The notes under the pieces are model-generated. The model was not told the DNA's origin and did not search any database. It was given only the letters and a program-made list of their open reading frames with translations. Shown here in pieces: positions 15,897 through 53,429 of a DNA stretch of 64,000 nt. The DNA lies in assembly GCF_055900595.2 (NCBI RefSeq), contig NZ_CM148325.1. One strand, written 5' to 3'. The stretch's first letter is position 1. Each line of letters opens with the position of its first letter. The position numbers and the translations under genes are program-made.

Positions 15897-16066
15897 AATG
15901 GCTCACTCAAGCTTGCTCACGATTGATTCCAGTAACAAACCGTATTGTGTAATTATTTCTATAGCAGGTCGCTATATAGGCTTGTATATATCGAATAATT
16001 TGAAAATCAAAGAGATATGTAGATTTTCACTCGAAAGTAGTATTACGTGTAAGTGAGGAGTAATTA

Positions 16067-16080
16067 TTGTTCGGTATCAA
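16067..16080 (-). promoter_or_regulatory. FNR-box-like site upstream of dmsA (TTGATACCGAACAA on the minus strand)
   Basis: matches TTGAT-N4-ATCAA consensus with one mismatch; lies 12 bp from the prophage att core. Confidence 0.5.
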
Positions 16081-16091
16081 AGGGAGACAAA

Positions 16092-16106
16092 AAAAGCGCC
16101 CGCAGG
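16092..16106. repeat. att core copy, integrase-proximal
   Basis: exact 15-mer shared with 53386..53400. Confidence 0.8.
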
Positions 16107-16192
16107 AGATTTAACGGTACTTACTCCTCTTGCTGATTTCCTTATTTTTCAATAAGTAAACAAAAACAAGGGGAGCAAATTATCACAAATAA

Positions 16193-21547: not shown

Positions 21548-21638
21548 GTAACCACTATGCACACACAAAAAAACCGCTTGCCATGCCGCAATCAGTCAGG
21601 TTACATTTCCGCTGCACCTCATAAAACGGGTGCCGGGA

Positions 21639-21833
21639 TTGCAACCCCCGCTGACAACTACAGCGCACAACCGCGCCAGCGGTTTTTTTGTGCGTACCGT
21701 ATCGCCACGTCTTTTTCGCGCCAGAATTATGGCGGGGCGTATGGGGCCGACTTCGGTCGGGCCGGTTTCTGTAGTTGCCGGTGGTTGCAACCCTGTACGT
21801 CTCGCCACCCAGAATTGCAACCTCTGGATGGTG
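21639..21833. repeat. TTGCAAC direct repeats (4 copies; three at ~30-bp spacing upstream of the 21868 gene)
   Basis: copies at 21639, 21766, 21796, 21827 in a ~320-bp noncoding stretch. Confidence 0.6.
21669..21690 (+). terminator. hairpin plus T-run (ACCGCGCCAGCGGTTTTTTT)
   Basis: GC stem followed by seven T. Confidence 0.45.
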
Positions 21834-21867: not shown

Positions 21868-22092
21868 ATGGCAAACCGCAAACAACAGCGCGCATACGCT
21901 GCGCGTCGTCACATCCAGACTGAAATCAACCGCAGACTTTTCCGCGCATTCCGCGTCGCGCATATCATGCACATCAATATGCTGCATGAGCGCAGCCACG
22001 CACTGTCAAACATGTATTCCGCCGCTGTATTCAGCTACCTGGCGGATGACCTGCGCGAGCTGCAGGACCTCATTAACCAGCACCACCACTAA
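21868..22092 (+). CDS. hypothetical small basic protein
   Basis: 74 aa, RBS AGAGG, preceded by the TTGCAAC repeats. Confidence 0.45.
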   Translation: MANRKQQRAYAARRHIQTEINRRLFRAFRVAHIMHINMLHERSHALSNMYSAAVFSYLADDLRELQDLINQHHH

Positions 22093-22160
22093 TCAACATC
22101 CCGGAGCCATCCCGCCCCCGTACGCGGGAGGCTTCCGCACGTCCGTTTCCGGAGGTTCTC

Positions 22161-22574
22161 ATGAAGAGCGTTAAGGGACTTTCAGATATTCAGGATTTTT
22201 TTAACTGGATGTGGGCGGTGGATCCACGCCTCGCTTCCCGTCTCAATGACCTGCACGACTATTACCGCCGCGCCTGTAAACAGGCAGCCCGCAGCGCTGC
22301 CACATACGGGGATTTTTCCTTCACCGTTGACGACCGTTACCGCGTGGATGTCAGAGACCAGAACCACAGCCTGGAGCTGGGCCTGTTCCACATCAACGGG
22401 TGCGACAGCAGCGTTATCAGCTGGTCATCGTCAGAAATGGTGCTCGTTCTGGAAATGACCACCCACAGCGTGGTCGTGAAAGGGATTAAAACAGCAGAAG
22501 ACTTTATCGCTGAATACCAGCGCCTTCTTGTGCTGTACCGGGCTGCATTTCAGAAGGCAACAGCAGGGGAGTAA
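22161..22574 (+). CDS. hypothetical early protein immediately upstream of A
   Basis: 137 aa, RBS GGAGG. Confidence 0.5.
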   Translation: MKSVKGLSDIQDFFNWMWAVDPRLASRLNDLHDYYRRACKQAARSAATYGDFSFTVDDRYRVDVRDQNHSLELGLFHINGCDSSVISWSSSEMVLVLEMTTHSVVVKGIKTAEDFIAEYQRLLVLYRAAFQKATAGE

Positions 22575-22579
22575 GCGGA

Positions 22580-25090
22580 ATGAGCCATCACCACACGCAC
22601 CTGGCGTACCCGTGGAACGCCCCGCTGCCGGTTATTGATCCTGAGACATTCGGCAGAGCATTACCGCAGAAGCCAACCGCATTACAACGGGCAATCCGTG
22701 ACTACCTCACCGAAGACATTCGCACTGAGGCCCGGCTGGATGAAGAAACCGTGGCCTTCCTGACAACCACGGACAAAGGTAAGCAAATTAATTCACACCT
22801 TCACCGGGACGAAGAGCGGCAGATAAGGCTGGATAAGCTGGCACGACACAGACGCGAAAATCCGCCAACGGCGGTATCGGAGGCGATAGCCGAACTTCGC
22901 ACCCTGCCCTCGTTTCTTGCCAGTGTGTTGATCCGTGATCTGGCACGACTGAACCGGAAACAGCAAAGTGCCCGCAGTGAAGGTGTAAAAAACAACAGCG
23001 CATACGTGGCCGATAATTTCGTTCGCCGTGGACTGCGTGCGCGCCTGAAACGTATTGAAAGGGTTAACGACCGCTTTGCAACGCCGGCATTCAAAACCAC
23101 CGTCGTGCGCCATCGCCTTGAAGAACTGCTCACACTGCCGCAACTCACCCGTGACGAAATCCAGCGCATCGCCACACTGACAGCCCAGGCATTCGCCGCA
23201 GAATTTGAACGCATATGTGATGAAGTTCTTGAACGGACAGGCAAGGATAATGACAGCCCGGTTATCTGGCTGCTGGCCTACCAGAAGGTGGCACGCACAG
23301 CCTTAATTCTGGGCATGGTCCCGCCATACTGGCCGGAACTCGAAATCAGGCACAACCGACGCACACCGCCGGACCCTGAACGGGTTCCGGGTGCGGTACT
23401 GCGCATCACCTGCGCGACCTGGTGGAACAACCAGTTACGCCACGTCGCCGATCTCTGGCGGGAGGAGTTACTGCGCGCCGCCGGCAGAGTGTCACGTAAA
23501 CAATCCCCCTATATCAGCCATGAGTCACTACTGGAGTTCCGCGAGAAGCGCCAGCGCACCTGTGACTTTCTCAAAAGCTGGGATATTGAAAACGAAGACG
23601 GCGAGCGCCTGAGTCTGGAGGACGTGTACTGGGCTGGCCTGGGTAATCCACGCAACCGCCGCAATGAAATGATGGTCTGCGTCAGAGGGATGGAGATGGT
23701 GGCCGAATTACGGGCTGACGTCGCATTCTTCATCACAGTAACCACCCCTTCCCGCTTTCACAGCGTGAACGAGAACGGCAGCCTGAACCCGAAATACAAC
23801 GGTGCCACAGTACGAGATGCCAGTGATTATCTGGTTTACGACTTCTTCGCAGCCGTAAGAAAAAAAATAAAAAAAGAGGGGCTGGGCTGGTACGGCGTGC
23901 GAACCGCTGAGCCACACCATGACGGCACGCCACACTGGCATATGCTGGTATTCACTTCCCCGGAGAACGCAGAGCGCATCATCGAAATTATGCGCGAAGC
24001 AGCAATTAAATCAGATCGCCACGAACTGGGGGACGATATTTCACCGCGCTTTAAATGCGAGAAGATAGACCCGGAAAAAGGCACACCGGCAAGCTATATC
24101 GCAACCTATATCGGTAAGAACCTGGACGCCAGCGCTTTCCACAACAATGATCCGAAAACCGGAAAACCTTACGTTGATGAGGAATCCGGGAAAACCATGG
24201 CGGAAACCGTGGAGAACGCCATTGCCTGGGCAAGCCTTCACCGCATCCGTCAGTTCCAGTTTTTCGGCATTCCGCCCCGCCAGGTATGGCGTGAACTCCG
24301 CCGCCTTGCAAGCCAGATGGAGCGCAACCCGGCATCACCGAAGCACCTCGATCATGACGATATTGACGCCATTATGGCTGCCGCAGATGTGGGATGTTTT
24401 GCCACCTACATCATGAAACAGGGTGGTGTGCTCATTCCGCGCAACCAGTATCTGGTCCGCACCGCATACGAAACCGCAGACGAAGCCAACGACTACGGTG
24501 AACTCCCTCAACGTATCTACGGAATCTGCGCCCCGTCGCTCGGAGAGCGGTACACCATATGCACCCATCCGGACGAGTGGAAACTGGTTAAAAAAGAAAC
24601 AATACCAGACAACCGCACGGGCGAGGGTTTTGACCTTCAGGGCGACCCCGTCGCCCCTTGGACTCGTGGCAATAACTGTCCCCGGGATGAAAAAACAGAC
24701 AATCACGGACCAGAAAACAGGCAGGACCCCGGACGACTGACGCTTCCCGAAGAGAACCTGGAAAGCTGGCTGAATACGTTAAGCAGGGGCGATCGGAGAA
24801 AACTGCGTAATCAGATTAAAAATCAGCCGTCGGGCGCAAAAACCGGACAAAACGACACCACACCGGCATCTGACACCCCTGTAAGGGTGGGGATTGTCGT
24901 GCCTGCGGATACCGCGACGGACACGCAAATCGCCCGCGAACTTGATGCGCTGGGTGTGCAGTTGCCTGACGCGGCCATCATCTCCGTGCGTAACGGTGCC
25001 CGTGTGCGTCTGGATAACGGGGGAACAGCGTACTGGGATGAGTCAGCCCGTCACATCATCACAGAGCAGCCAGTGGAGGCGGGAGCATGA
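22580..25090 (+). CDS. A: P2 gpA-family rolling-circle replication initiation protein
   Basis: 836 aa; HWHMLVF histidine motif and catalytic Tyr region (YIATYIGKN) typical of P2 A. Confidence 0.85.
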   Translation: MSHHHTHLAYPWNAPLPVIDPETFGRALPQKPTALQRAIRDYLTEDIRTEARLDEETVAFLTTTDKGKQINSHLHRDEERQIRLDKLARHRRENPPTAVSEAIAELRTLPSFLASVLIRDLARLNRKQQSARSEGVKNNSAYVADNFVRRGLRARLKRIERVNDRFATPAFKTTVVRHRLEELLTLPQLTRDEIQRIATLTAQAFAAEFERICDEVLERTGKDNDSPVIWLLAYQKVARTALILGMVPPYWPELEIRHNRRTPPDPERVPGAVLRITCATWWNNQLRHVADLWREELLRAAGRVSRKQSPYISHESLLEFREKRQRTCDFLKSWDIENEDGERLSLEDVYWAGLGNPRNRRNEMMVCVRGMEMVAELRADVAFFITVTTPSRFHSVNENGSLNPKYNGATVRDASDYLVYDFFAAVRKKIKKEGLGWYGVRTAEPHHDGTPHWHMLVFTSPENAERIIEIMREAAIKSDRHELGDDISPRFKCEKIDPEKGTPASYIATYIGKNLDASAFHNNDPKTGKPYVDEESGKTMAETVENAIAWASLHRIRQFQFFGIPPRQVWRELRRLASQMERNPASPKHLDHDDIDAIMAAADVGCFATYIMKQGGVLIPRNQYLVRTAYETADEANDYGELPQRIYGICAPSLGERYTICTHPDEWKLVKKETIPDNRTGEGFDLQGDPVAPWTRGNNCPRDEKTDNHGPENRQDPGRLTLPEENLESWLNTLSRGDRRKLRNQIKNQPSGAKTGQNDTTPASDTPVRVGIVVPADTATDTQIARELDALGVQLPDAAIISVRNGARVRLDNGGTAYWDESARHIITEQPVEAGA

Positions 25091-30511: not shown

Positions 30512-30573
30512 TTCTCCCCCTCATGTGATTCAGGCAGTTTACTCACCCCTTACAGGCCTCCTGCCATGCCCGG

Positions 30574-30597
30574 TGTTGTCGGCATTCGCTTACAACA
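30574..30597. promoter_or_regulatory. dyad TGTTGT-N12-ACAACA (inner TGT-N12-ACA) between divergent P and O
   Basis: perfect 6-bp inverted repeat centred about 55 bp from inferred starts of both P and O. Confidence 0.55.
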
Positions 30598-30665
30598 AAC
30601 GCACTTTGTCTGTCCCTGCCCCGTTTTGCCATCATGAGACAAACGATCATCACGAGGGCCCGACA

Positions 30666-31502
30666 ATGCCTGAACAGAAAAAAACATCCCGTAAAACATT
30701 CCGCGTGGCCGTTTCCGGTCCCACCGCAGACGGTCGCGAAATCAGTGCCGCAGATTTGCGCGCGGCGGCCAGTAACTTCAACCCTGAGATTTACGGCGCA
30801 CGCGTGAACGTGGAGCACTGGCTTTCACCGGTTCCGTCCAGTGAATTTTCCGCCATGGGTGATGTGACGGCACTGAGCACAGAAGAAATCACCGAAGGTC
30901 CGCTGGTCGGTCGTACTGCGCTGTATGCGGAAATCGAACCCACCGACCGCATGAAAAATCTGGTCTCCCGGGGTAAGAAAATTTACTCCAGTATTGAGCT
31001 GGCACGAAATTTCACCCCTACGGGCACCCCGTATCTTATTGGCCTTGCCATGACAGACACCCCGGCAAGCATCGGCACGGAGCGTCTTCAGTTCGCCCTG
31101 CAGCAGCGCCGTTCGGTCATGACCTTCAATAATCAGCAGACGGAAGCACCGATGTTCTCTGACGCCATTGAGGCTGAAGTGATCGAACTGACGGAGCGCC
31201 GCAGCGAGGAAGGTGCGCAGTGGCTTAACCGCGTGATGAACATGATTGGGCGAGGACGCAGGGCTGACGACACCCGGTTCTCCCGCATTCATGACGCCGT
31301 TGAGGGGATAGCCTCATCGCATGCCGACCTTCTCGACCGCTTCAGTGCACTGGAATCGCGCCATCAGGCAGACAGACAGAAAATCGCCACCCTGTCCACT
31401 GAGCTGGCAGAGCTGAAAAACAGACTGCGCGGACTGGACGCTGATCAGGAAAGTCGTTTTACGGCAACCGGCGGGCAGTCCAGACAACTGGCTGACTACT
31501 GA
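30666..31502 (+). CDS. O: capsid scaffolding protein (P2 gpO family)
   Basis: start at MPEQKKTSRK within the longer six-frame ORF; position between P and N. Confidence 0.8.
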   Translation: MPEQKKTSRKTFRVAVSGPTADGREISAADLRAAASNFNPEIYGARVNVEHWLSPVPSSEFSAMGDVTALSTEEITEGPLVGRTALYAEIEPTDRMKNLVSRGKKIYSSIELARNFTPTGTPYLIGLAMTDTPASIGTERLQFALQQRRSVMTFNNQQTEAPMFSDAIEAEVIELTERRSEEGAQWLNRVMNMIGRGRRADDTRFSRIHDAVEGIASSHADLLDRFSALESRHQADRQKIATLSTELAELKNRLRGLDADQESRFTATGGQSRQLADY

Positions 31503-31530
31503 CAGAAATAACCACAAGAGGTGATAACCG

Positions 31531-32670
31531 ATGAATCTGATCATGAGCGATGCCGCGCGGGCCGAGCTTTTTGCTTACCAGGCACAACAGGCGGAGATGA
31601 ATAACATCACGATATCTGCGCTCTCCTCCCGCTTTTCGGTACAGCCGGCAGTGCAGCAGAGATTTGAAAACGCATCAAAGGAAAGCCATGATTTTCTTCA
31701 GAAAGCCAACAGCATTGGTGTGACAGAGCAGAAAGGTGAAAAGGTACTCCTGGACACCACCGGGCCGGTTGCGCGCACGAACAGCAGTTATGACGGTACA
31801 AATCGTCGTAACCCGCTGAATGTGGTGGACATGAAAGCGCGACGCTATGAGTGCGAGCAGGTGAACTACGACACCTTCATCTCCTACCCTCAGCTTGACA
31901 TGTGGGCCGGACACCCTGACTTCCAGCTGCGTGTGAGTCGCCAGATTGCCAGACAGGTGGCACTTGATCGCATCATGACAGGTTTTAACGGTACGCACCA
32001 TGCGGAAGTCTCGGATATAAAAAAACACCCGCGACTTGAGGACGTCAATAAGGGGTGGCTGCAGGATATCAGGGACCAGGCCCCGCAACGCGTCATGAAA
32101 GACGTGATGCTGACTGCGCGCAATATGGACAATTCGGTGGCATACACAGGCAGATACGCCAATCCCGATGCACTGGTCCAGGATGCACGCTCATCCCTGC
32201 TTGATGAATGGCACAAGGACGCAGACGACCTCGTTGTCATCATGGGGCGAAACCTCTTTAACTCCCTGCGCCTGCCGGTCCTGAACAGTATCAGCATGCA
32301 GAATGCGAATGCCGAACTGCTTGCCGGACAGCTCATTGTGTCAACGCGGACCATTGGCGGCCTTGATGTGTACCTTGCGCCATTTTTCCCGGCTCAGTCA
32401 ATGCTCATCACCTCATTCAGCAACCTGTCGGTTTACTGGCAGAAGGGGTCCATGCGTCGTCTCATGAAGGATGAGCCCGAATACAACCGTATCGCCATCT
32501 ATCAGTCCGTTAACGACTGCTATGTGGTTGAGGACCATGGTAAGTGCGCACTGATTGAGAATATCAGCTTTGCCACATATGACCATGACGCGCCGGACTG
32601 GTACCGGGAGGGCATAAAAGCACTGTCAGCGCAGGCTGAAGACAAGGATGCAGGGGAAGAGGAGGATTAA
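31531..32670 (+). CDS. N: major capsid protein (P2 gpN family)
   Basis: 379 aa with clear similarity to P2 N as recalled. Confidence 0.85.
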   Translation: MNLIMSDAARAELFAYQAQQAEMNNITISALSSRFSVQPAVQQRFENASKESHDFLQKANSIGVTEQKGEKVLLDTTGPVARTNSSYDGTNRRNPLNVVDMKARRYECEQVNYDTFISYPQLDMWAGHPDFQLRVSRQIARQVALDRIMTGFNGTHHAEVSDIKKHPRLEDVNKGWLQDIRDQAPQRVMKDVMLTARNMDNSVAYTGRYANPDALVQDARSSLLDEWHKDADDLVVIMGRNLFNSLRLPVLNSISMQNANAELLAGQLIVSTRTIGGLDVYLAPFFPAQSMLITSFSNLSVYWQKGSMRRLMKDEPEYNRIAIYQSVNDCYVVEDHGKCALIENISFATYDHDAPDWYREGIKALSAQAEDKDAGEEED

Positions 32671-32672
32671 CC

Positions 32673-33449
32673 ATGCTGACACCGGCACAGGCTCATTTCC
32701 AGCACGTGATGGCTTTACGGGCAGGAACGGCAGCAGAAAACGAGGATATCGTGGCCCGCACGGCTCATGAGCAGGTCCTTCACCGTCTGCGCCTGGCACA
32801 GCAACGCATAAAGGGCGTCCAGGCAAAAGCGGCAAAGGCCGCGCTCAAGCGTGAAATGCTGCCGGGTTTTGCAGGCTGGATAGACGGCACGCTGGAAGCC
32901 GACGGCGGACAGCAGGATGAGGTGATAGCCACACTCATGGTGTGGGCCGTGGACTGTGGCGACCTGGCGCTTGCACTGCGCATCGGGGATTATGTGGTTC
33001 GCCACAACCTCACGATGCCTGACAACTTCGGGCGTACGGCAGCCACGGTACTGACCGAGGAAATCTGCAACCCTGTTCTGACACAGGCCGGAACGGATGC
33101 ACACGCCGATTTGTCCGGCTACATCGAACCGCTGGACACCCTCTGGCAAATTGTCGCGAACCGGGACATGCCCGATGAGGTCCGCGCCAAGCTGTGCAAG
33201 GCATGCGCCTTTGCCCGTCGTGGCCTGACCGATGCCGACAGCATGGCGGTGAGTCTGAAGCTGTTCCGTGAGGCAATGCACCTTAACCCGAATGCGGGGG
33301 TAAAACGTGAGATTGCCACGCTTTCACGGGCCCTGAAAAAGGCCGGACAGGATGAAGCCGCTGCCGCACAGGAGCCTGCGGCACAGAAAGATACAACCAG
33401 AGAACAGACCACGACGCCGAAGGCGAAAGCGAAGGCGAAACGTGGTTAA
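32673..33449 (+). CDS. M: terminase small (endonuclease) subunit (P2 gpM family)
   Basis: 258 aa, position after N. Confidence 0.8.
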   Translation: MLTPAQAHFQHVMALRAGTAAENEDIVARTAHEQVLHRLRLAQQRIKGVQAKAAKAALKREMLPGFAGWIDGTLEADGGQQDEVIATLMVWAVDCGDLALALRIGDYVVRHNLTMPDNFGRTAATVLTEEICNPVLTQAGTDAHADLSGYIEPLDTLWQIVANRDMPDEVRAKLCKACAFARRGLTDADSMAVSLKLFREAMHLNPNAGVKREIATLSRALKKAGQDEAAAAQEPAAQKDTTREQTTTPKAKAKAKRG

Positions 33450-33550
33450 CGGCTGACCCCGTCAGAAGGCGGCGTGCCGGGCGTTCCGGTTACGGTTTTC
33501 CGTTCCCCTTACACCCGGCACCCACCGCTTTTTTTCTGAAGGAGCGATTT

Positions 33551-34045
33551 ATGAGCATGGTCGCAAGACCGGAAGCCGCCCCTGCACGGGACGATATCCC
33601 CGACACCGACGACGGCGACGCCACCATCACCGCCGGGGCATTCTGGCCGGAGATTGTGCTGCGGGAGCTGCGCCTTGCAGTACGCCTGCCGGGCCGCATC
33701 ACCTCCACACGTCTGGCGCACGTTGCCACGGGAGCCGTGGCTCACGTCACGCGGGAGCTGGAAGAGTGGCAGAAGGCGCAGTCTGCCGCAGGGTTCAGCA
33801 TCCTCGCAGAAGTGCCTGCCGCCACCATCAACGGTGAGAGCGTCAACGTATGGCATTACCGCAACGCCGTCTACAGCGCCACCCGCGCCCTGATTCTGGA
33901 ACGCTGGCGGGATGTGGACACCACTGATAAAGGGGACCGCCGGGCTGACGCACTGGATGAGCAGATGGAAGACTTATGGCGCGATGTGCGCTGGTCCGTG
34001 GCAGATATTCTGGGTCGCCCCCGTCTTTTTGCGGAGCTGGTGTGA
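33551..34045 (+). CDS. L: head completion protein (P2 gpL family)
   Basis: 164 aa, position and size. Confidence 0.75.
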   Translation: MSMVARPEAAPARDDIPDTDDGDATITAGAFWPEIVLRELRLAVRLPGRITSTRLAHVATGAVAHVTRELEEWQKAQSAAGFSILAEVPAATINGESVNVWHYRNAVYSATRALILERWRDVDTTDKGDRRADALDEQMEDLWRDVRWSVADILGRPRLFAELV

Positions 34046-34242
34046 TGAAAGTGAGGGCACTCCAGGGGGATACCGTCGATTTACTCTGTTTCCGGCACTA
34101 CGGCACCACGCAGGGGGTGACCGCACAGGTACTTGATGCCAATCCAGGGCTCTGCCGCCAGGTAATTCTGGAAGCGGGACAGGAGGTGGAGATGCCGGAG
34201 CCGGAAAGGAAACAGCAACGCGAAAAGGTAAAGCTATGGTGA
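34045..34242 (+). CDS. X: tail protein X
   Basis: 65 aa from MKVRALQGDTVD; ATGA-type coupling to L. Confidence 0.7.
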   Translation: MKVRALQGDTVDLLCFRHYGTTQGVTAQVLDANPGLCRQVILEAGQEVEMPEPERKQQREKVKLW

Positions 34243-34526
34243 CGGGATTTTTTCAGCGCGTCAGTGACTGGATCACCTTCTGGGCGTCAGTGACGGCAAC
34301 AACCATTGGTGTTATGACCATCAGCGAAAAAATTGCGCTGGCCGGGCTGCTTCTGGGGTCACTTTCCGCCATCCATGCCTGGTGCCACCGCAGGCGTACG
34401 GAGCAGGCAATGAAGCGCCGCAATGACCTTATCGCCCGCATCCTGGCACGTTCAGAAAACCGCGAGCTTCACGACGGTGAGAGACGGGCACTGGACAGCG
34501 TGAGACAGGACGGAGAAGAGCGGTGA
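34236..34526 (+). CDS. holin (putative)
   Basis: 96 aa, hydrophobic helices followed by charged tail, directly upstream of endolysin. Confidence 0.65.
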   Translation: MVTGFFQRVSDWITFWASVTATTIGVMTISEKIALAGLLLGSLSAIHAWCHRRRTEQAMKRRNDLIARILARSENRELHDGERRALDSVRQDGEER

Positions 34527-35068
34527 AACTGCCGGTAAAACGTTATGCGGTGGCGGCCATTGTGGCGCTGGGCGTCTCCATGGCACCCGGTGAACTGAGA
34601 ACCTCACGGGAAGCACAGATAAAAATCGCCACCCGGGAAGAGTGCCGGGCGACACCGTACCGTGATATTGCAGGAGTAATGACCGTGGGATGTGGTTCAA
34701 CAGGGGGCGTGGAGAACCGGGTTTACGGAGAAAAGGAGGTGGCCCGCCGCTGGGTGAATGACCTGCGGCACGCGGAAAACTGTATCAACCAGAACTTCAG
34801 CGGTGCCGCCATGCCCCAGTCCGCCTTTGAGGCGATGACCGACGCGGCGTTCAACGTCGGCTGTACCGGCCTGATGTGGTACCGGGACAGGAGCGGCAAC
34901 CGGCAGCGCACCACCATCTGGAAGCACGCACAGGCGCACCGCTGGGTGGCGATGTGCGGGAGACTGACCGATTTTGTCAACAGTGGCGGACGCCGCTCAC
35001 AGGGGCTGGTTAACCGCCGGGAGGAGTTCAGACAGTGGTGTCTTCGCGACACGGGAGGCAGCACATGA
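34523..35068 (+). CDS. signal-anchor-release (SAR) type lysozyme endolysin (putative)
   Basis: 181 aa; N-terminal hydrophobic segment YAVAAIVALGVSMAPG followed by E-8-D-5-T catalytic pattern (EECRATPYRDIAGVMT). Confidence 0.7.
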   Translation: MKLPVKRYAVAAIVALGVSMAPGELRTSREAQIKIATREECRATPYRDIAGVMTVGCGSTGGVENRVYGEKEVARRWVNDLRHAENCINQNFSGAAMPQSAFEAMTDAAFNVGCTGLMWYRDRSGNRQRTTIWKHAQAHRWVAMCGRLTDFVNSGGRRSQGLVNRREEFRQWCLRDTGGST

Positions 35069-35472
35069 GACCGGTTTACGCCGTGATTGTTGCCCTCATG
35101 GTGACCACCCTGACGGCGGCGGCCATGTGGCAGTCATACCGGCTGGGGCGTGCCGGTGAGGCACGTGACGCCGCAGAGCAGCAGCTGGGCGAATACAGCC
35201 GGGCGCTGCGTGAGTCCTCCGCCGTTATCAGCGATGCCTCCGCCGTACTGCATGAGGTGATGACGCAGCGACAGAAAAGGGCACAGGAAGGAGAAGTCAG
35301 ACGTGAACAGCTTCGCGAAATTGCTGCGACGGATGAGTGCGCCGGCACTCTTCCTGACCACCGTTTTACTGACCGGCTGCGCGAACACACGGAACGCGCC
35401 ACTGCCCGCGCCCTCCTTCCGGTTCATTCCGGCGGGACTGACGACGGGAACACGGCCCCCGCCCTTCCCTGA
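35065..35472 (+). CDS. i-spanin (Rz/LysB-like)
   Basis: 135 aa from MRPVYAVIVALMV, N-terminal TM then charged coiled-coil domain; ATGA overlap with endolysin stop. Confidence 0.65.
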   Translation: MRPVYAVIVALMVTTLTAAAMWQSYRLGRAGEARDAAEQQLGEYSRALRESSAVISDASAVLHEVMTQRQKRAQEGEVRREQLREIAATDECAGTLPDHRFTDRLREHTERATARALLPVHSGGTDDGNTAPALP

Positions 35473-35617
35473 ACACCCCACCTGGGGAAATATCGGGATA
35501 TGGAGCGACAGCCTCCTGGATGCACTGGAAACCTGCAACGCAGACAAACGGGCCATTGAGGCGATGGAGCGCCGGAGACTCAACCGACAGAACGGAGAGG
35601 CGCATGCTGAAAAGTAA
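35333..35617 (+). CDS. o-spanin lipoprotein (Rz1/LysC-like), overlapping the i-spanin gene in another frame
   Basis: lipobox LLTGC, Pro-rich; starts inside the i-spanin gene and extends past its stop. Confidence 0.6.
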   Translation: MSAPALFLTTVLLTGCANTRNAPLPAPSFRFIPAGLTTGTRPPPFPEHPTWGNIGIWSDSLLDALETCNADKRAIEAMERRRLNRQNGEAHAEK

Positions 35618-36068
35618 ATCCCTGAGCACACACATGAGTACAGCGTGCCGGTGGTGCAGGGCCAACCCGGAAAAGTTCACCGTGTTCATTGAACGTGGCG
35701 GGATAGAGACCACCGGCGAGACGCCGACGTTCGTGTACAACTACCGGCTGGTGATGTTCGTGATGGACTACACGGGCGATCTGGACAACCTGACGCTTCC
35801 ACTGATTGTCTGGCTGGCAGAGAACCAGCCGCAGTTGCTGCTTAATCCTGAGCGCAACAACGATATTCAGTTCACGGCGGCCATTAACGACGACGACAGC
35901 GCGGACGTGCTGTTTGAGCTGCCGTTACGTGAACGCGTGCGCGTCACCCGCAGGGATGACGGCACCCTCATGACAGAACATCTACCGGAGCCGAAATCAC
36001 GCATCCCGCAGGACGGCGACTGGTCACACATTCTGGAGGATGTGACGTGGAACATTGTCACCGGATAA
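35604..36068 (+). CDS. R: tail completion protein (P2 gpR family)
   Basis: 154 aa from MLKSKSLSTHM; position. Confidence 0.65.
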   Translation: MLKSKSLSTHMSTACRWCRANPEKFTVFIERGGIETTGETPTFVYNYRLVMFVMDYTGDLDNLTLPLIVWLAENQPQLLLNPERNNDIQFTAAINDDDSADVLFELPLRERVRVTRRDDGTLMTEHLPEPKSRIPQDGDWSHILEDVTWNIVTG

Positions 36069-36083
36069 CACGCGGAGAATGTT

Positions 36084-36740
36084 ATGGGGAAACTGAGATA
36101 CCGTAACCTCGTTCCCGCTGAAGGAATGAGTAACATGTTTGTCAATATCCGGCTGGCAACCAGCCCGCAGGCAGTGAAGCGCATTGCCGCGCATGTGGGT
36201 AAGGAGCTGCGGCGCGTGAACCAGAGCCGGATGCGCGCCCAGAAAGCGCCGGACGGTTCGGTGTGGACACGCCGTAAACGCCGTATATCACGCCTTCAGG
36301 AGCGCATCAGCTTTATCTGGCAAAACCAGAACCGCACCCTGAAAAACTGGCATCACGGTTCAGGAAAATACGGCCAGACCATCACCGGCTGGGATGAAGA
36401 CCGGAGCGGCATACGTACCTTTTACCGGAGTGATATCCTCCGTTTCCTTGAAATCAGGACACGCCGCATCAACCGTGACACCACAAAAACGGTGCCGATG
36501 TTTGCGAAGCTGCGCACGGCCCGTTATCTGAAAGTGAAGGCGGACGCATCAGGCGTGACGGTGGGCTACAGCGGCGTGGCGGCACGCATTGCCCGCGTTC
36601 ACCAGTTCGGGGAGCGCGACCGGGTGGCCGCAGGGATGTATACGGATTATCCGGCCCGTGAACTTCTTGGAATAACACCGGCAGATGAACGACTTATTCA
36701 GCGTATCATTATGGACAATATCGCGAGGGCTGTGGCATGA
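36084..36740 (+). CDS. S: tail completion protein (P2 gpS-like)
   Basis: position between R and V; start uncertain. Confidence 0.6.
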   Translation: MGKLRYRNLVPAEGMSNMFVNIRLATSPQAVKRIAAHVGKELRRVNQSRMRAQKAPDGSVWTRRKRRISRLQERISFIWQNQNRTLKNWHHGSGKYGQTITGWDEDRSGIRTFYRSDILRFLEIRTRRINRDTTKTVPMFAKLRTARYLKVKADASGVTVGYSGVAARIARVHQFGERDRVAAGMYTDYPARELLGITPADERLIQRIIMDNIARAVA

Positions 36741-37318
36741 ACGCGGAATTAATGCGCCTTATCAGCAACATCATCAGAACCGGCGTGATTTTCGACGTGA
36801 ACCCGCAGACCTGGGAGGTCCGGGTGCGCAGTGGCGGACTGGAGACAGGCTGGCTTCGCTGGAGCACCGCGCGGGCGGGCGCGTTCAGTGTCTGGGTGCC
36901 GCCAGCCACCGGTGAACAGGTGGCGTTCGTCTGTATCGGTGGTAATCCCGAAACCGCGATAATCATCGGCAGCCTCTGGAGCGATGATATCCCGGCACCG
37001 GGCAGCACACTGAAGGAAATCATCATGACAGCACCGGACGGTGCGGTATTCCGCTACGATGCAGACGCCGGTGCACTGGAGGTTAAGGGGATTAAAACAG
37101 CCAGCATTCAGGCCGACACGCGCATCACCCTGGACACGTCGGAGGTGGTGTGTACCCGCAAACTTATCACCGCCACCCTGGAGGTGCAGAACGGCGGCGA
37201 GATGCGCGGCAGCATATCCCACAGCGGCGGCAGCCTGACATCCAACGGTATCACCGTTCATACGCACACCCACGGTGGCGTCAGGACGGGCCCGGGCACC
37301 ACGGGAGGCCCGCAATGA
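36737..37318 (+). CDS. V: baseplate assembly protein V (spike)
   Basis: 193 aa, P2 V-like. Confidence 0.8.
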   Translation: MNAELMRLISNIIRTGVIFDVNPQTWEVRVRSGGLETGWLRWSTARAGAFSVWVPPATGEQVAFVCIGGNPETAIIIGSLWSDDIPAPGSTLKEIIMTAPDGAVFRYDADAGALEVKGIKTASIQADTRITLDTSEVVCTRKLITATLEVQNGGEMRGSISHSGGSLTSNGITVHTHTHGGVRTGPGTTGGPQ

Positions 37319-37665
37319 CCGCTGTTTACAGGGGGATGAACCCGCAGGGAACCGGCACGCTGAGCGACAGCGAACACCTGAAAAACAGCGTGCGGGATAT
37401 CCTGACCACACCGCCAGGCAGCCGGGTGATGCGCCGCGAATACGGCAGCCTGTTACCGGACCTCATCGACGAGCCCATGAACGACACCACGCGTTTACAG
37501 TGCATGAGCGCCACGGTGACTGCGCTGGCGCGCCATGAACCCCGTATAGCACTGCAGAACGTCGATGTGAACTGGCGGGCTGGCGGACGCGCCGTGGTGA
37601 CGTTATCCGGCATCATCACCGAAACCATGCAGAACATCACATTCAGTATCACCCTGAGGGAGTAA
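37315..37665 (+). CDS. W: baseplate protein W (gp25-like)
   Basis: 116 aa from MTAVYRGMNPQG; overlap with V stop. Confidence 0.8.
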   Translation: MTAVYRGMNPQGTGTLSDSEHLKNSVRDILTTPPGSRVMRREYGSLLPDLIDEPMNDTTRLQCMSATVTALARHEPRIALQNVDVNWRAGGRAVVTLSGIITETMQNITFSITLRE

Positions 37666-49420: not shown

Positions 49421-49672
49421 ATGTTCCGTTGTCCCCTATGCGGTGCATCCGCACGTATCCGCACCAGTCGCAATGAAAATGATTCAGGCACAGTTCGCCT
49501 GAAGTACTACCAGTGCAATAACCTCGAATGCGGGATCGGCTTTACCACACTGGAGGGTTTTAACAAATTCACATCAAAACGCGCCCCGTCGCCGCAGGGT
49601 ACAGAGCGGATACCGTGGGAAGATTTTCCGGGATCTCACAGGGGGAATACTCAGATTAATCTTGATATTTAA
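49421..49672 (+). CDS. ogr: Ogr/Delta-family zinc-finger late transcription activator
   Basis: 83 aa; CPLC...C..NLEC zinc-binding arrangement like P2 Ogr. Confidence 0.85.
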   Translation: MFRCPLCGASARIRTSRNENDSGTVRLKYYQCNNLECGIGFTTLEGFNKFTSKRAPSPQGTERIPWEDFPGSHRGNTQINLDI

Positions 49673-49784
49673 GAACAATAATCAGGTTGAGAGGACATCA
49701 TAAGGCAAGTAGATTAACGGCAGATACTTTCCCGCAACCACGGGCAAGTATTTAATTATCCATGATGAAATATGACCTAAATTG

Positions 49785-49817
49785 TTTTTTGCCCGCCGGA
49801 AAGCGGGCATTTTTTTA
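49785..49817 (+). terminator. terminator hairpin copy 1 (GCCCGCCGGAAAGCGGGC plus T-run)
   Basis: first of nine near-identical hairpins in 49.8-53.0 kb. Confidence 0.7.
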
Positions 49818-50030
49818 TTCTTTTGTGGTTATGGGGTCATCAGGAACCACGTGCAGATTATATTTTTGTTTTTTTGGCGTTCCTCCGGCAGCAACGAGTT
49901 CATCAATAAGACACTGACACGCCTGAACATCCCGGGCATGTCTTAGTTTCACCTTTATTGATTTAACCTTATCCTCACCGGAGGAGAAATGCAGTTCAAT
50001 CTCAATATCGTTTCTTCGGAACAATCTCAT
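49815..50030 (-). CDS. 71-aa hypothetical protein, intact copy of a repeated gene
   Basis: MRLFRRNDIEIELHFSSGEDKVKSIKVKLRHARDVQACQCLIDELVAAGGTPKKQKYNLHVVPDDPITTKE; decayed paralogues at 51101..51199 and 51784..51855. Confidence 0.55.
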   Translation of the reverse strand: MRLFRRNDIEIELHFSSGEDKVKSIKVKLRHARDVQACQCLIDELVAAGGTPKKQKYNLHVVPDDPITTKE

Positions 50031-50123
50031 ACGCCCCCTGAATATATCAGAAATACTAGTATCGAAAAATGAGAAAACAGTTAGACAGGAGAAACATATT
50101 AACACAAATCATTTATACCTATA

Positions 50124-50141
50124 GATGAAATTATAATTTCA
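50124..50141. promoter_or_regulatory. perfect 18-bp palindrome ATGAAATTATAATTTCAT with embedded TATAAT
   Basis: about 95 bp upstream of the 71-aa gene; related imperfect palindromes upstream of the decayed copies. Confidence 0.55.
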
Positions 50142-50250
50142 TTCATGAATATGATAGATAACTATATTGTGAACAAAATGAAAAATGGCTAAATTAAAAA
50201 TGGGCATGGAGGAATGCCCGGTTATCAATATAATGTGACGTAGATCATTG

Positions 50251-50281
50251 TTTTGCCCGCCGGAGAGCGGGCATTTTTTTT
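50251..50281 (+). terminator. terminator hairpin copy 2
   Basis: GCCCGCCGGAGAGCGGGC plus T7. Confidence 0.7.
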
Positions 50282-50450
50282 GCGCCTGCCATCGAGGCGC
50301 CTTCCCTGGCGCACACAAAGCAGCCCTGATTTTCCATGAAAACTTCAGGGTTGAGCTGCGGGCACAAAGTGAGTAGATTAGCTACGGGTACCTCCCCCTG
50401 ACAACAGGAAGGGTGTCCATTATCCATGATATACAAACGAAAAGTCTTGT
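50282..50450 (+). ncRNA. repeated ~170-nt structured module S1 (candidate small RNA)
   Basis: bounded by terminator hairpins; internal hairpins (GCGCC..GGCGC, CCCTGA..TCAGGG, CCTTCC..GGAAGG); four paralogous copies. Confidence 0.35.
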
Positions 50451-50481
50451 TTTTTGCCCGCCGAAGCGCGGGCATTTTTTT
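50451..50481 (+). terminator. terminator hairpin copy 3
   Basis: GCCCGCCGAAGCGCGGGC plus T-run. Confidence 0.7.
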
Positions 50482-50607
50482 ATGCATCAGACAAGATACA
50501 GCCCACCCCAACTGACACCTGAAATATTGCCGCAACAAAAAGAAACAGTTAAATTACGCGCGGGTGCCTTTCGGCTGATGGCCGGAGGGAAAACCTGAAG
50601 GCCGGAT

Positions 50608-50841
50608 GTGGAAAGGCCCCGGAAAACATTTCTGTTTAACCGAGGCCCTAACCGCATTACCTTGACAAGTGAAAGGTTAGCGCCTCTCCGGAAAAGGAGC
50701 AAGTGCTATGTCGCAAAAATCGCTTACGGCCATCACGTTCTGCGTGACGGCAATCCTCATCATCTGGATATTGCACGGTTCGCTGTGCGAAATACGGATG
50801 AGCTTCTGGGGAGCGGAGTTTGCGGCGTTCTTACAATGTAA
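50608..50841 (+). CDS. mok-like overlapping reading frame of hok locus
   Basis: 77-aa ORF starting upstream of and overlapping the hok-like frame, as in hok/mok/sok loci. Confidence 0.5.
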   Translation: MERPRKTFLFNRGPNRITLTSERLAPLRKRSKCYVAKIAYGHHVLRDGNPHHLDIARFAVRNTDELLGSGVCGVLTM

Positions 50842-50848
50842 GAAGTAA
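50708..50848 (+). CDS. hok: Hok/Gef-family type I toxin (intact)
   Basis: 46 aa MSQKSLTAITFCVTAILIIWILHGSLCEIRMSFWGAEFAAFLQCKK; single TM plus conserved SLCEIR motif; 5' GGGTGCCT (50552) complementary to 3' AGGCACCC (50906). Confidence 0.8.
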   Translation: MSQKSLTAITFCVTAILIIWILHGSLCEIRMSFWGAEFAAFLQCKK

Positions 50849-50934
50849 GGAAACCGCGACGGGGGAGCAATCCCCCGTCAATCGGTTGCCAGGGTAAGGT
50901 CGATAAGGCACCCTATCTCACAGACATGAACAAC

Positions 50935-50970
50935 AAACCCGCAGCATAAAAACTGCGGGTTTTCTTTTTG
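50935..50970 (+). terminator. rho-independent terminator of hok transcript
   Basis: AACCCGCAG-CATAAAAA-CTGCGGGTT followed by TTCTTTTT. Confidence 0.7.
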
Positions 50971-51100
50971 GTGTCCTCACCGACTTGAAACAGTGATCAG
51001 ACTATAAGACAAAGCCCGCAATGTTGCGGGCTTACTCTACCTCTCGAAAATGTGGTCACTGCGTGGACATACGCTGATACAAATCCTTTATATCAATAAA

Positions 51101-51199
51101 TTAAATCTTTGTTTTTTTCATCAACAATGATTTAACCTTATCCTCACCGGAGGAGAAATGCAGTTCAATCTCAATATCGTTTCTGTGGAACAGCCTCAT
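51101..51199 (-). pseudogene. truncated paralogue of the 71-aa gene
   Basis: MRLFHRNDIEIELHFSSGEDKVKS then divergent and stop after 32 codons; retains AGGAGG RBS. Confidence 0.55.
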
Positions 51200-51414
51200 A
51201 AGACAACCTCCTGAATTCATCAGAAACACAGTCAACTGAAAACCAGAAAGCAGACAAACAGTGGACACACATTAATACAAATCATTTATACCTATAGATG
51301 AAATTGCAGTTTCATCTATAACATGACAGGTAACAATATTGTGAAAAAACTCAAAACTCGTTAGATTAAAGACGGACAGAGCAATGCTACTTTATCAATA
51401 ACATGTAACCTGTA

Positions 51415-51445
51415 CTTCCTTATTTTGCCCGCCGAAGCACGGGCA
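51415..51445 (+). terminator. terminator hairpin copy 4
   Basis: GCCCGCCGAAGCACGGGC plus T-run. Confidence 0.7.
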
Positions 51446-51621
51446 TTTTTTTTGCGCCTGCCATCGAGGCGCCTTCCCTGGCGCACACAAAGCAGCCCTG
51501 ATTTTCCATGAAAACTTCAGGGTTGAGCCAAAAGCACAAAGACAGTAGATTAACCACGGGTGCCTTCCACCTGACAACAGGAAGGGTGTCCAGTATCAAT
51601 GACAGACAACTCACATTGCTG
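51446..51621 (+). ncRNA. structured module S2
   Basis: paralogue of S1. Confidence 0.35.
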
Positions 51622-51651
51622 TTTTGCCCGCCGGAAAGCGGGCATTTTTTT
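51622..51651 (+). terminator. terminator hairpin copy 5
   Basis: GCCCGCCGGAAAGCGGGC plus T-run. Confidence 0.7.
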
Positions 51652-51783
51652 ATTCTTTTGTGGTTATTGGGTCATCAGGAACAACATGCAGATTATGCTT
51701 TGATTTTTTTGGTGTTATTACAGCAGCAACGAGTTTATTAATAAGACACTGACATGCCTGAACATCCCTGACATATCATAATT

Positions 51784-51855
51784 TCACTTTATTTTTTTAG
51801 CTTGTCCTTTCTGGAGCAGAAATATCTCAACATCGTTTCTGTGGAACAACCTCAT
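51784..51855 (-). pseudogene. decayed paralogue of the 71-aa gene
   Basis: MRLFHRNDVEIF then frameshift; 3' region still alignable to the intact copy. Confidence 0.5.
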
Positions 51856-52071
51856 TTGCCCCTGAATGTATCATAAATATCAGCATCGGAAAACCAACAG
51901 CAATACAGAAGAAACATGTTAATGCAAATCACTTATACCTATAGATGAAATTACAGTTTTGTTCATAAATATGATAAGTAACTATATTGTGAATAAAATG
52001 AAAACTAGCTAAATTAAACGTGGGCATGGTGGAATGCCTCGTAATCAATAATACATGATCCGTACTTCCTT

Positions 52072-52102
52072 GTTTTGCCCGCCGGAAAGCGGGCATTTTT
52101 TT
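52072..52102 (+). terminator. terminator hairpin copy 6
   Basis: same hairpin. Confidence 0.7.
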
Positions 52103-52270
52103 GGCGGTTACCATCGCCTCACCTTCCTGGTTCACATGAAGCAACCCTGATTTTCCATGAAAACTTCAGGGTTGAGACAAAAGCACAAAGACAGTAGATT
52201 AACCACGGGTACCTTCCACCTGACAACAGGAAGGCTGTCCAGTATCAATGACAGACAACTCACATTGCTG
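52103..52270 (+). ncRNA. structured module S3
   Basis: paralogue of S1/S2. Confidence 0.35.
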
Positions 52271-52299
52271 TTTTGCCCGCCGGAAAGCGGGCTTTTTTT
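52271..52299 (+). terminator. terminator hairpin copy 7
   Basis: same hairpin, T-run after GGGC. Confidence 0.7.
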
Positions 52300-52471
52300 G
52301 GCAGTTATCATAGCCGCACCTTCCTGGCACATATGAAGCAACCCTGATTTTCCATGAAAACTTCAGGGTTGAGACAAAAGCACAAAAACAGTAGATTAAC
52401 CACGGGTGCCTGCCACCTGACAACAGGAAGGGGTGTCCATTATCCATGATATACAAACGAAAAGTCTTGTC
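52300..52471 (+). ncRNA. structured module S4
   Basis: paralogue, 3' end like S1. Confidence 0.35.
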
Positions 52472-52501
52472 TTTTGCCCGCCAAAGCGCGGGCATTTTTT
52501 T
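52472..52501 (+). terminator. terminator hairpin copy 8
   Basis: GCCCGCCAAAGCGCGGGC plus T-run. Confidence 0.7.
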
Positions 52502-52712
52502 ATGCATCAGACAAGATACAGCCCACCCCAACTAACACCTGAAATATTGCCGCAACAAAAAGAAACGGGTGCCTTTCGGCTGATGGCCGGAGGGAAAACC
52601 TGAAGACCGGATGTGGAAAGGCCCCGGAAAACATCTGTGTTTAACCGAGGCCTGACCCTTCCTACCGTGACAAGTGGAAGGTTAGCGCCTCTTTGTAAAA
52701 GGAGCAAGCGCT

Positions 52713-52853
52713 ATACCGCAAAAAACGATTATTGTTGGCATTTTATGCCTGACAATAACCCTGGTCATCTGGATGGTCCACGATTCGTTATGTGAATTCA
52801 GCTTTGATATCTGAGGAGCGCGTTTTGCGGCGTTCTTGCAGTGTAAACCGTAA
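52713..52853 (+). pseudogene. hok-like toxin pseudogene (second copy)
   Basis: paralogous to 50708..50848 but start codon is ATA and an in-frame TGA replaces the Trp codon; mok-like frame 52613..52795 retained. Confidence 0.7.
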
Positions 52854-52948
52854 GAAACCGCAGCGGGGGAGAAATTCCCCGCTATCCGGTTGTTGGGGTG
52901 GGCCGATATGGCGCCCTTTCCCTGTAGAGACAAAACAAAAAACCAGAT

Positions 52949-52975
52949 TTGCCCGCCATTGAGAGGGCTTTTTTG
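52949..52975 (+). terminator. degenerate terminator hairpin copy 9
   Basis: GCCCGCCATTGAGAGGGC plus T6. Confidence 0.45.
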
Positions 52976-53003
52976 TCACCCTCACCAGTGAGGGCATCAT
53001 CAT

Positions 53004-53231
53004 TCAGAGGCGCGTAAGCCACCCGGCGTTAACATCCTGCCTGTCAACCCTGGCCGCAGAGTCTGAACGGCAGGTACCGGAAGGAGTACCAAAAACATCC
53101 CTGACAAGTTCCGCCACCTTCCCGATATCATCAGGTGTCACATTCCTCACCTCGGCCGTGATCCGTGGCGTACCATCATCGTTAACAAGAGTGGCTTTAA
53201 AGCTGGTGCGAAGGGAAAACAACATCAACAT
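53004..53231 (-). CDS. hypothetical small protein at prophage end (75 aa)
   Basis: RBS AGGGAGGGG upstream of ATG; last ORF inside the att boundary. Confidence 0.4.
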   Translation of the reverse strand: MLMLFSLRTSFKATLVNDDGTPRITAEVRNVTPDDIGKVAELVRDVFGTPSGTCRSDSAARVDRQDVNAGWLTRL

Positions 53232-53385: not shown

Positions 53386-53400
53386 CAAAAGCGCCCGCAG
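53386..53400. repeat. att core copy, serS-proximal (forms the serS terminator hairpin)
   Basis: AAAAGCGCCCGCAGG identical to 16092..16106; continues as GCGCTTTTT. Confidence 0.8.
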
Positions 53401-53429
53401 GCGCTTTTTAGATTCAGAAAAATTGGGTA

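Follow-up and report, generated by a model that had tools for sequence, protein, structure and literature searches.

In the hok/sok (parB) system of plasmid R1, a small Hok/Gef toxin is encoded on an mRNA that is locked by pairing of its 5′ and 3′ ends, and the promoter of the antisense RNA Sok overlaps the hok ribosome-binding region. The loss-of-function positions of R1 hok have been mapped experimentally and include the –10 box, start-codon positions 2 and 3, and 18 of the 20 possible premature stops (PMC9841398). In this FASTBAC-Seq work, mutations of the –10 box abolished transcription, while mutants in the third position of the start codon survived without Sok (PMC9841398). For HokB, a Cys29-Cys46 disulfide has been reported as essential for toxicity (bioRxiv 10.1101/2025.08.07.668861).

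Phages carry hok as well. In the P88-like phages (Xuanwuvirus P88, Chuche and 500465-2), a PHROG 251 gene labelled ‘MokW-like host killing’ lies after ogr and before the attachment site, and the isolated phages P88 and Chuche have one hok each, in the gene order ogr, hok, int. On the chromosome of Escherichia coli K-12, Pedersen and Gerdes are said to have found in 1999 that hokA-E have mostly lost function through IS elements, point mutations or rearrangements. The inactivation of hokA-E is also summarised in a survey which found that hok is enriched in prophages, that 5.3% of loci have no start codon or Shine-Dalgarno sequence, and that hok can form ‘islets’ of 2-6 loci within 2 kb, with 98% of islets made up of a single 60%-identity peptide cluster (bioRxiv 10.1101/2025.08.07.668861). 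In the hokW-sokW pair of the Sp5 prophage, hokW was shown to aid phage release (PMC8621323).

Here we analysed a 64,000-nucleotide stretch of DNA (the window; contig NZ_CM148325.1 of assembly GCF_055900595.2), which derives from an E. coli chromosome and includes a P2-family prophage inserted between dmsA and serS, and which contains two hok loci in total, hok1 and hok2. As in R1, these loci combine a small Hok/Gef toxin frame, a Sok promoter overlapping the hok ribosome-binding region and a 5′-3′ mRNA lock, and the lesions of hok2 match the classes mapped in R1 (–10, start codon, premature stop; PMC9841398). Unlike R1 hok, which is plasmid-borne and 52 aa long, the window locus is phage-borne, belongs to a clade with 46 aa and includes a dead copy; its Rfam sok score is below the gathering threshold and a conserved mok frame is not evident. 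Like hokA-E of K-12, hok2 resides in the chromosome and is silenced by ordinary mutations, and an IS element in the 3′ end of the copy in the sister strain GF4 has its parallel in several K-12 loci; in contrast to hokA-E, hok2 sits in a mobile prophage that occupies at least three different attachment sites and combines a promoter deletion with two point mutations. The P88-like phages have one intact hok, whereas the triplicated cassette of the window prophage includes an intact hok (hok1) and a dead one (hok2). Over the mRNA, hok1 shares 89-93% identity with the P88 and Chuche loci. Position (ogr to att) and PHROG family are also those of hokW-sokW. As in the hok islets, the two loci are Escherichia prophage genes spaced ~2 kb apart, but the identity of their peptides is just 52% and argues for assembly from different alleles over local duplication. 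Overall, we put at roughly 85% the probability that hok2 is an ordinary multi-hit pseudogene of a known toxin-antitoxin family, carried as cargo of a P2-family prophage.

Prophage setting and cargo region

Both hok loci are located between ogr and the right attachment site of the prophage, which is P88-like (Xuanwuvirus, Peduoviridae). The ogr/Delta-like late-gene activator itself (49421..49672, plus strand; PHROG 603 and RefSeq annotation of the identical sequence) starts the cargo region. P88, Chuche, E2348/69 and others likewise link ogr to hok, with many E. coli hok genes directly 3′ of ogr. The block from ogr to hok2 (to ~53409) adjoins zapB/glpF in SCU-115 and ihfB/rpsA in other assemblies, and its occurrence at differing sites therefore marks it as phage cargo, not host DNA; the closest intact hok2 allele is found in the same kind of prophage, adjoining copA. 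We place the right end of the prophage at ~53409, as prophages from other attachment sites are similar only up to 53408-53409. In GF4 the prophage extends from int, adjoining dmsA, to serS, and is without window segments 22043-24092 and 30560-37454. A 75-codon ORF (53004..53231, minus strand) follows the terminal hok at the extreme right of the prophage, and gave no NCBIfam or PHROG match; a 73-75-aa ORF is found at the same position in loci L007-L014 and L017-L027. The Rfam family STnc130 has a full match at 15987-16121, between dmsA and the integrase end, and a partial match of its 3′ end at 53387-53407, adjoining serS, which suggests integration of the phage into the 3′ end of an STnc130 sRNA gene. 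In the early region of the prophage, matches to Rfam isrK and C4 antisense RNA lie side by side (21614-21812).

Three diverged copies (80-88%) of one cassette make up positions 49787-52501 of the cargo, the middle one without hok. Each cassette is built from a minus-strand 71-codon ORF (49815-50030, with remnants at 51101-51268 and ~51800-51860), an inverted-repeat promoter region, a conserved plus-strand ORF of 13-15 codons (50144-50191, with copies near 51324 and 51968), a terminator, one or more sRNA-like units and hok. The first cassette, including hok1, is absent from some strains via recombination between the repeats. The sRNA-like units, five in number and all on the plus strand (49687-49816, 50350-50481, 51525-51651, 52172-52300 and 52369-52501), each combine a promoter-like TTGAGN-17-TAGATT with a ~35-nt 5′ hairpin, followed by a linker and a strong terminator (TGCCCGCC..GCGGGCA then a T run), and one of them stands directly 5′ of each hok. 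They had no match in Rfam, and of 5426 complete E. coli genomes just 30 carry them, each with 3-10 copies. The promoter and first ~20 nt of units 2-5 resemble the promoters and 5′ ends of hok loci, significantly so in units 3-5 (z ~4-10) and less strongly, mostly short of significance, in unit 2, and unit 1 keeps the hairpin shape with a different sequence and no similarity to hok. A derivation of the units as internally deleted hok loci was considered and rejected, since their 5′ similarity is significant but their 3′ part merely shares the terminator type.

The intact locus and the relation of the two copies

The hok1 promoter (50527..50561, plus strand) has a –35 TTGCCG (50527-50532), a 17-nt spacer, a –10 TAAATT (50550-50555) and, after 6 nt, +1 at the G at 50562. 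From there the intact hok1 mRNA (50562..50918) comprises the leader, the Hok coding sequence (50708-50848) and a 3′ fold-back for pairing with the 5′ end. The coding sequence is an intact 46-codon ORF which RefSeq, where the identical sequence occurs in other strains, annotates as Hok/Gef (WP_000078913), with matches to Pfam HOK_GEF (E=9.8e-7) and PHROG 251 (E=8.5e-22). The NCBIfam HokA model gave 30.7 and 39.5 bits, under its curated cutoff of 89; on sequence comparison, homology to Hok/Gef is thus clear while equivalence to HokA is not. Over the mRNA, hok1 is 97.4% identical to the ogr-linked hok of E2348/69. An intact locus of this kind would use a weak constitutive promoter to produce a stable mRNA locked by 5′-3′ end pairing, from which a membrane toxin of ~46 aa would be translated once the 3′ end is trimmed; Sok RNA would pair with the hok leader and lead to decay, such that toxin is not made.

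The pairwise alignment suggested in the original prediction shows that the two loci, within 50400-51060 and 52400-53060, are homologous, including the coding part, over ~600 columns with a mean column identity of 87%. The mRNA-equivalent of hok2 (52567..52920, plus strand) has a leader 89% identical to that of hok1 and a 3′ fold-back GGCGCCC at 52910-52916. In minimum-free-energy folds of both hok1 and hok2 the 5′ and 3′ ends are paired, and 12 end-to-end pairs persist in the consensus fold of 12 homologues, one of them varying between U-A, U-G and C-G; compensatory changes are seen in 18 of the 93 pairs of this consensus fold. By prediction, hok2 thus retains the family mRNA fold, both the 5′-3′ pairing and the 3′ hairpin. 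The Rfam sok family (RF01794), which covers the hok leader, matches over the full model length, beginning exactly at the inferred +1 of each locus (50562 and 52567), with 46.2 and 42.8 bits against a gathering threshold of 59 (E=2e-8 and 2e-7; 1.7e-7 for hok2); the Rfam scan at gathering threshold gave no match at the hok locus. Retention of a leader and a mok-like frame had also been proposed for hok2. The leader is retained, and an overlapping GTG-started frame of 60 codons does exist (52613..52795, plus strand), spanning the hok start as does a 77-codon frame in hok1, but such a frame is not conserved in the clade, being absent from 5 of the 12 homologues including P88 and Chuche, and its significance is doubtful.

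Identity between hok1 and hok2 is uneven along the locus. It amounts to 98% over 136 nt of upstream flank, 98% over the first 60 nt of the mRNA and 89% over the whole leader, and to 69% in the coding sequence, 73% in the 3′ UTR and 52% in the protein. The hok2 coding sequence and 3′ UTR are instead 93.7% and 98.4% identical to those of the allele at the copA site (P0002), in which ATG, TGG and promoter are intact. Since the proteins are only 52% identical and the nearest alleles differ, hok2 is not a recent duplicate that then decayed. Judging from these comparisons, hok1 and hok2 are distinct alleles of a phage cargo gene, joined in a triplicated cassette and partly homogenised by recombination. 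‘Decay of a duplicated toxin gene’, as hok2 was originally described, is therefore right as to decay, even understated given three independent lesions and the IS421 added in GF4, but only loosely right as to duplication.

Lesions in the coding remnant and promoter of hok2

The coding remnant of hok2 (52713..52853, plus strand; homologous to PHROG 251) was originally described as a hok paralogue with ATA in place of ATG and TGA in place of TGG, each by a single-base substitution. Alignment to hok1, codon for codon, bears this out. The start position is ATA (52713-52715), where every other homologue examined has ATG, and codon 34 is TGA (52812-52814), where hok1 has TGG (50807-50809). Each is a single G>A change relative to the nearest alleles, with ATG present in loci L007 and L029 and TGG in L001, L002 and L017-L025. 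No in-frame ATG, GTG or TTG was found 5′ of the ATA, because the frame is closed by a TAG at 52683-52685, and an intact toxin ORF with a canonical start is thus present in hok1 and not in hok2. The conceptual product still matches PHROG 251 (E=2.1e-17) and is 91% identical to the intact P0002, though a read-out of hok2 would end after 33 codons and lose Cys44, the partner of Cys27. By analogy, Cys44 is the equivalent of the HokB disulfide cysteine.

A third lesion, missed in the original account, lies in the promoter. The hok2 promoter remnant (52547..52566, plus strand) keeps the –35 TTGCCG (52547-52552), but its –10 and discriminator are gone through a 15-bp deletion with its junction at 52566/52567. 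The missing segment, AGTTAAATTACGCGC, occupies 50547-50561 in hok1, directly 5′ of the inferred +1, and includes the –10 hexamer TAAATT. In all 12 other homologues the arrangement TTGC(C/G/A)N-17-TA(A/G/C)ATT-6-GGGTGCC is conserved, while upstream flanks are otherwise unrelated. A consensus scan of 52500-52570 gave no replacement plus-strand promoter, and a strong terminator, GC-rich with seven pairs and a T7 run, is found ~70 nt upstream of hok2 (52475-52494). With the –10 assigned from conservation and the R1 analogy, we infer that hok2 has no toxin-mRNA promoter of its own; read-through from the promoter of the upstream unit (52369-52397) past the terminator could still give some hok2 RNA.

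As these lesions match the loss-of-function data for R1 hok and HokB, hok2 has one lesion for each experimentally defined class. Transcription would be lost with the 15 bp that include the –10 hexamer, initiation would be lost through AUG>AUA, and UGG>UGA at codon 34 would shorten any protein by its C-terminal third, with the second conserved cysteine.

Allelic states and order of events

ATA is found in all 26 complete E. coli genomes that have the hok2 allele and in all 13 further hok2 loci inspected. TGA is rarer than ATA and is limited among complete genomes to GF4, but is also found in assemblies L026-L028 and in a metagenome contig (L035), so that a TGA private to the window strain is rejected. 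The 33-aa product of the form with ATA and TGA (P0005) accounts for 176 blocks of a public protein collection, and is found in prophages adjoining serS and ihfB/rpsA as well as in a metagenome contig. Assembly GCA_029324695.1 (L026) differs from the window by one base in 8102, which places the window in the L026 lineage. There are two further G>A changes in the window lineage, at 52606 (common to L026 only) and 52534 (window only), the former disrupting one pair of the hok2 5′ hairpin.

Five states of the allele are present in public data. The 15 bp of the promoter are still present together with ATA and TGG in L036, a metagenome contig. The promoter is deleted in all other states, with ATG (within a hok1-like patch) and TGG in L029, with ATA and TGG in the majority form (P0004, 1668 blocks), with ATA and TGA in the window, GF4, L026-L028 and L035, and with an additional IS421 in the 3′ UTR of GF4, at the equivalent of window position ~52880. 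Lesions would thus have accumulated stepwise through intermediates with ATA only, deletion only, both, both with TGA, and all three with IS421. The ATG of L029 suggests gene conversion, as it lies in the hok1-like patch. These sequences are most simply read as neutral decay in steps, with hok1 occasionally donating sequence by gene conversion.

In our search for an ATG version of the hok2 allele, only L029 carried one; IMG/VR had none, and the metagenome scan gave two contigs, both with ATA. P0001 was rejected as the intact ATG ancestor, as its DNA begins with ATA, which the pipeline rendered as Met. We also rejected the idea that the G>A changes cluster because of selection or editing (3 of 11 differences in hok2, P~0.07, not significant and post hoc), as well as A-to-I editing of the mRNA restoring AUG or UGG. 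The contexts for the latter are UACC, paired in the consensus fold, and GAGG; known TadA editing sites are UACG in a loop.

Sok RNAs and alternative readings of hok2

Predicted Sok promoters are found on the minus strand of both loci. Sok1 and its promoter (50610..50702) comprise an RNA from ~50667 to 50610, a –35 TTGCTC (50702-50697) and a –10 TAACCT (50679-50674). Sok2 and its promoter (52615..52707) comprise an RNA from ~52672 to 52615, a –35 TTGCTC (52707-52702), a 17-nt spacer and a –10 TAACCT (52684-52679). The hexamers are identical in hok1, hok2 and the intact homologues, and the corresponding blocks of the 12-homologue alignment are invariant, except for the –35 block of BEC1. The predicted Sok2 RNA has a 5′ tail and a hairpin, the latter nearly identical to that of Sok1, and the 10 of 58 nt that differ between Sok1 and Sok2 fall mostly in the 5′ tail, where pairing begins. 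The best promoter-like match of the region, TTGTCA-16-AATAAT (10/12), lies inside the hok2 remnant and faces Sok2 (52728-52768, minus strand). The copA-site allele has AATGAT in place of its AATAAT, and the site may be a chance match in AT-rich sequence.

With an unchanged Sok2 promoter and RNA, the hok2 locus probably still encodes an antitoxin RNA, one that would have no toxin of its own to control. It is possible that Sok2 has been kept for use, either damping hok1 or neutralising the hok of related incoming phages and plasmids (anti-addiction or cross-immunity). Three to four lesions have struck the toxin side while the Sok2 promoter and hairpin are intact, and the Sok2 region is 82.5% identical to Sok1 and only 63.5% to the Sok of the allele that shares the hok2 coding sequence. 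However, the 10 differences from Sok1 weaken the predicted tail duplex from about –49/–54 kcal/mol for cognate pairs to about –24 kcal/mol for non-cognate ones, the window-lineage G>A at 52606 falls just 3′ of the predicted Sok2 end, and chromosomal Sok RNAs gave no protection against R1 hok (PMC9841398). Moreover, because the Sok promoter shares sequence with the hok Shine-Dalgarno region and the lineage is young, its intactness may reflect too little time. Conservation of Sok2 is no proof of selection, since the allele is too young and a handful of SNPs separate its carriers. On balance, we consider retention for use unlikely. A broader version, in which the whole ogr-to-att cargo is a phage-borne RNA array that has discarded the hok2 toxin and expresses Sok2 and the five neighbouring units, with promoters and first ~20 nt of hok origin, against the hok/sok of the same or competing phages and plasmids, would imply cross-immunity or anti-addiction if true; we regard it as quite improbable.

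ATA is allowed as an initiator in bacteria, yet it is a very weak one. Low-level initiation at the ATA, perhaps coupled to the upstream frame, might have left the TGG allele as an attenuated live toxin, with the deletion, TGA and IS421 then selected against residual toxicity. Successive lesions within one 400-bp locus would fit such a history, as would the acceptance of ATA as a start by NCBI pipelines and the finding that hok2 accounts for three of the 11 differences that separate the window from a TGG strain of the same background (~0.9 expected, P~0.07). This enrichment is neither significant nor other than post hoc, however, R1 hok mutants in the third position of the start codon survive without Sok, and the window allele has no –10 and stops at codon 34 regardless, leaving the attenuated toxin very improbable.

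The original prediction also raised the possibility of a regulatory RNA decoy, in which an untranslatable hok2 mRNA absorbs Sok RNA and so tunes hok1. Its leader, Sok target included, is indeed 89% identical to that of hok1, but the Sok-target region is where hok1 and hok2 diverge most within the leader, and a sponge for Sok1 would raise hok1 toxicity, with no obvious benefit. What is broken is the promoter of the hok2 mRNA, with its –10 missing and a strong terminator at 52475-52494 just upstream, while the antisense Sok looks intact, which is the opposite of a decoy; we find the decoy not supported and extremely improbable. Finally, sequencing or assembly error at the start codon and codon 34, the hazard named in the original prediction, is for practical purposes ruled out, as we found no point in its support and identical bases are present in many independent assemblies and two metagenome contigs.

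Implications

Silenced hok loci have been known in E. coli since the 1990s and the presence of hok in prophages is well documented, so that hok2 as an ordinary pseudogene matters little by itself. The main practical point concerns inconsistent public annotation: in GenBank, ‘Hok/Gef family protein’ is the name of the ATA-started ORF and even of the 33-aa stump, and RefSeq is blank at hok2. Survey tallies of ‘Hok homologues’ include dead copies, of which hok2 gives a warning. For the Hok/Gef family, hok2 offers a clean natural series of stepwise toxin inactivation, echoing laboratory suppressor screens.
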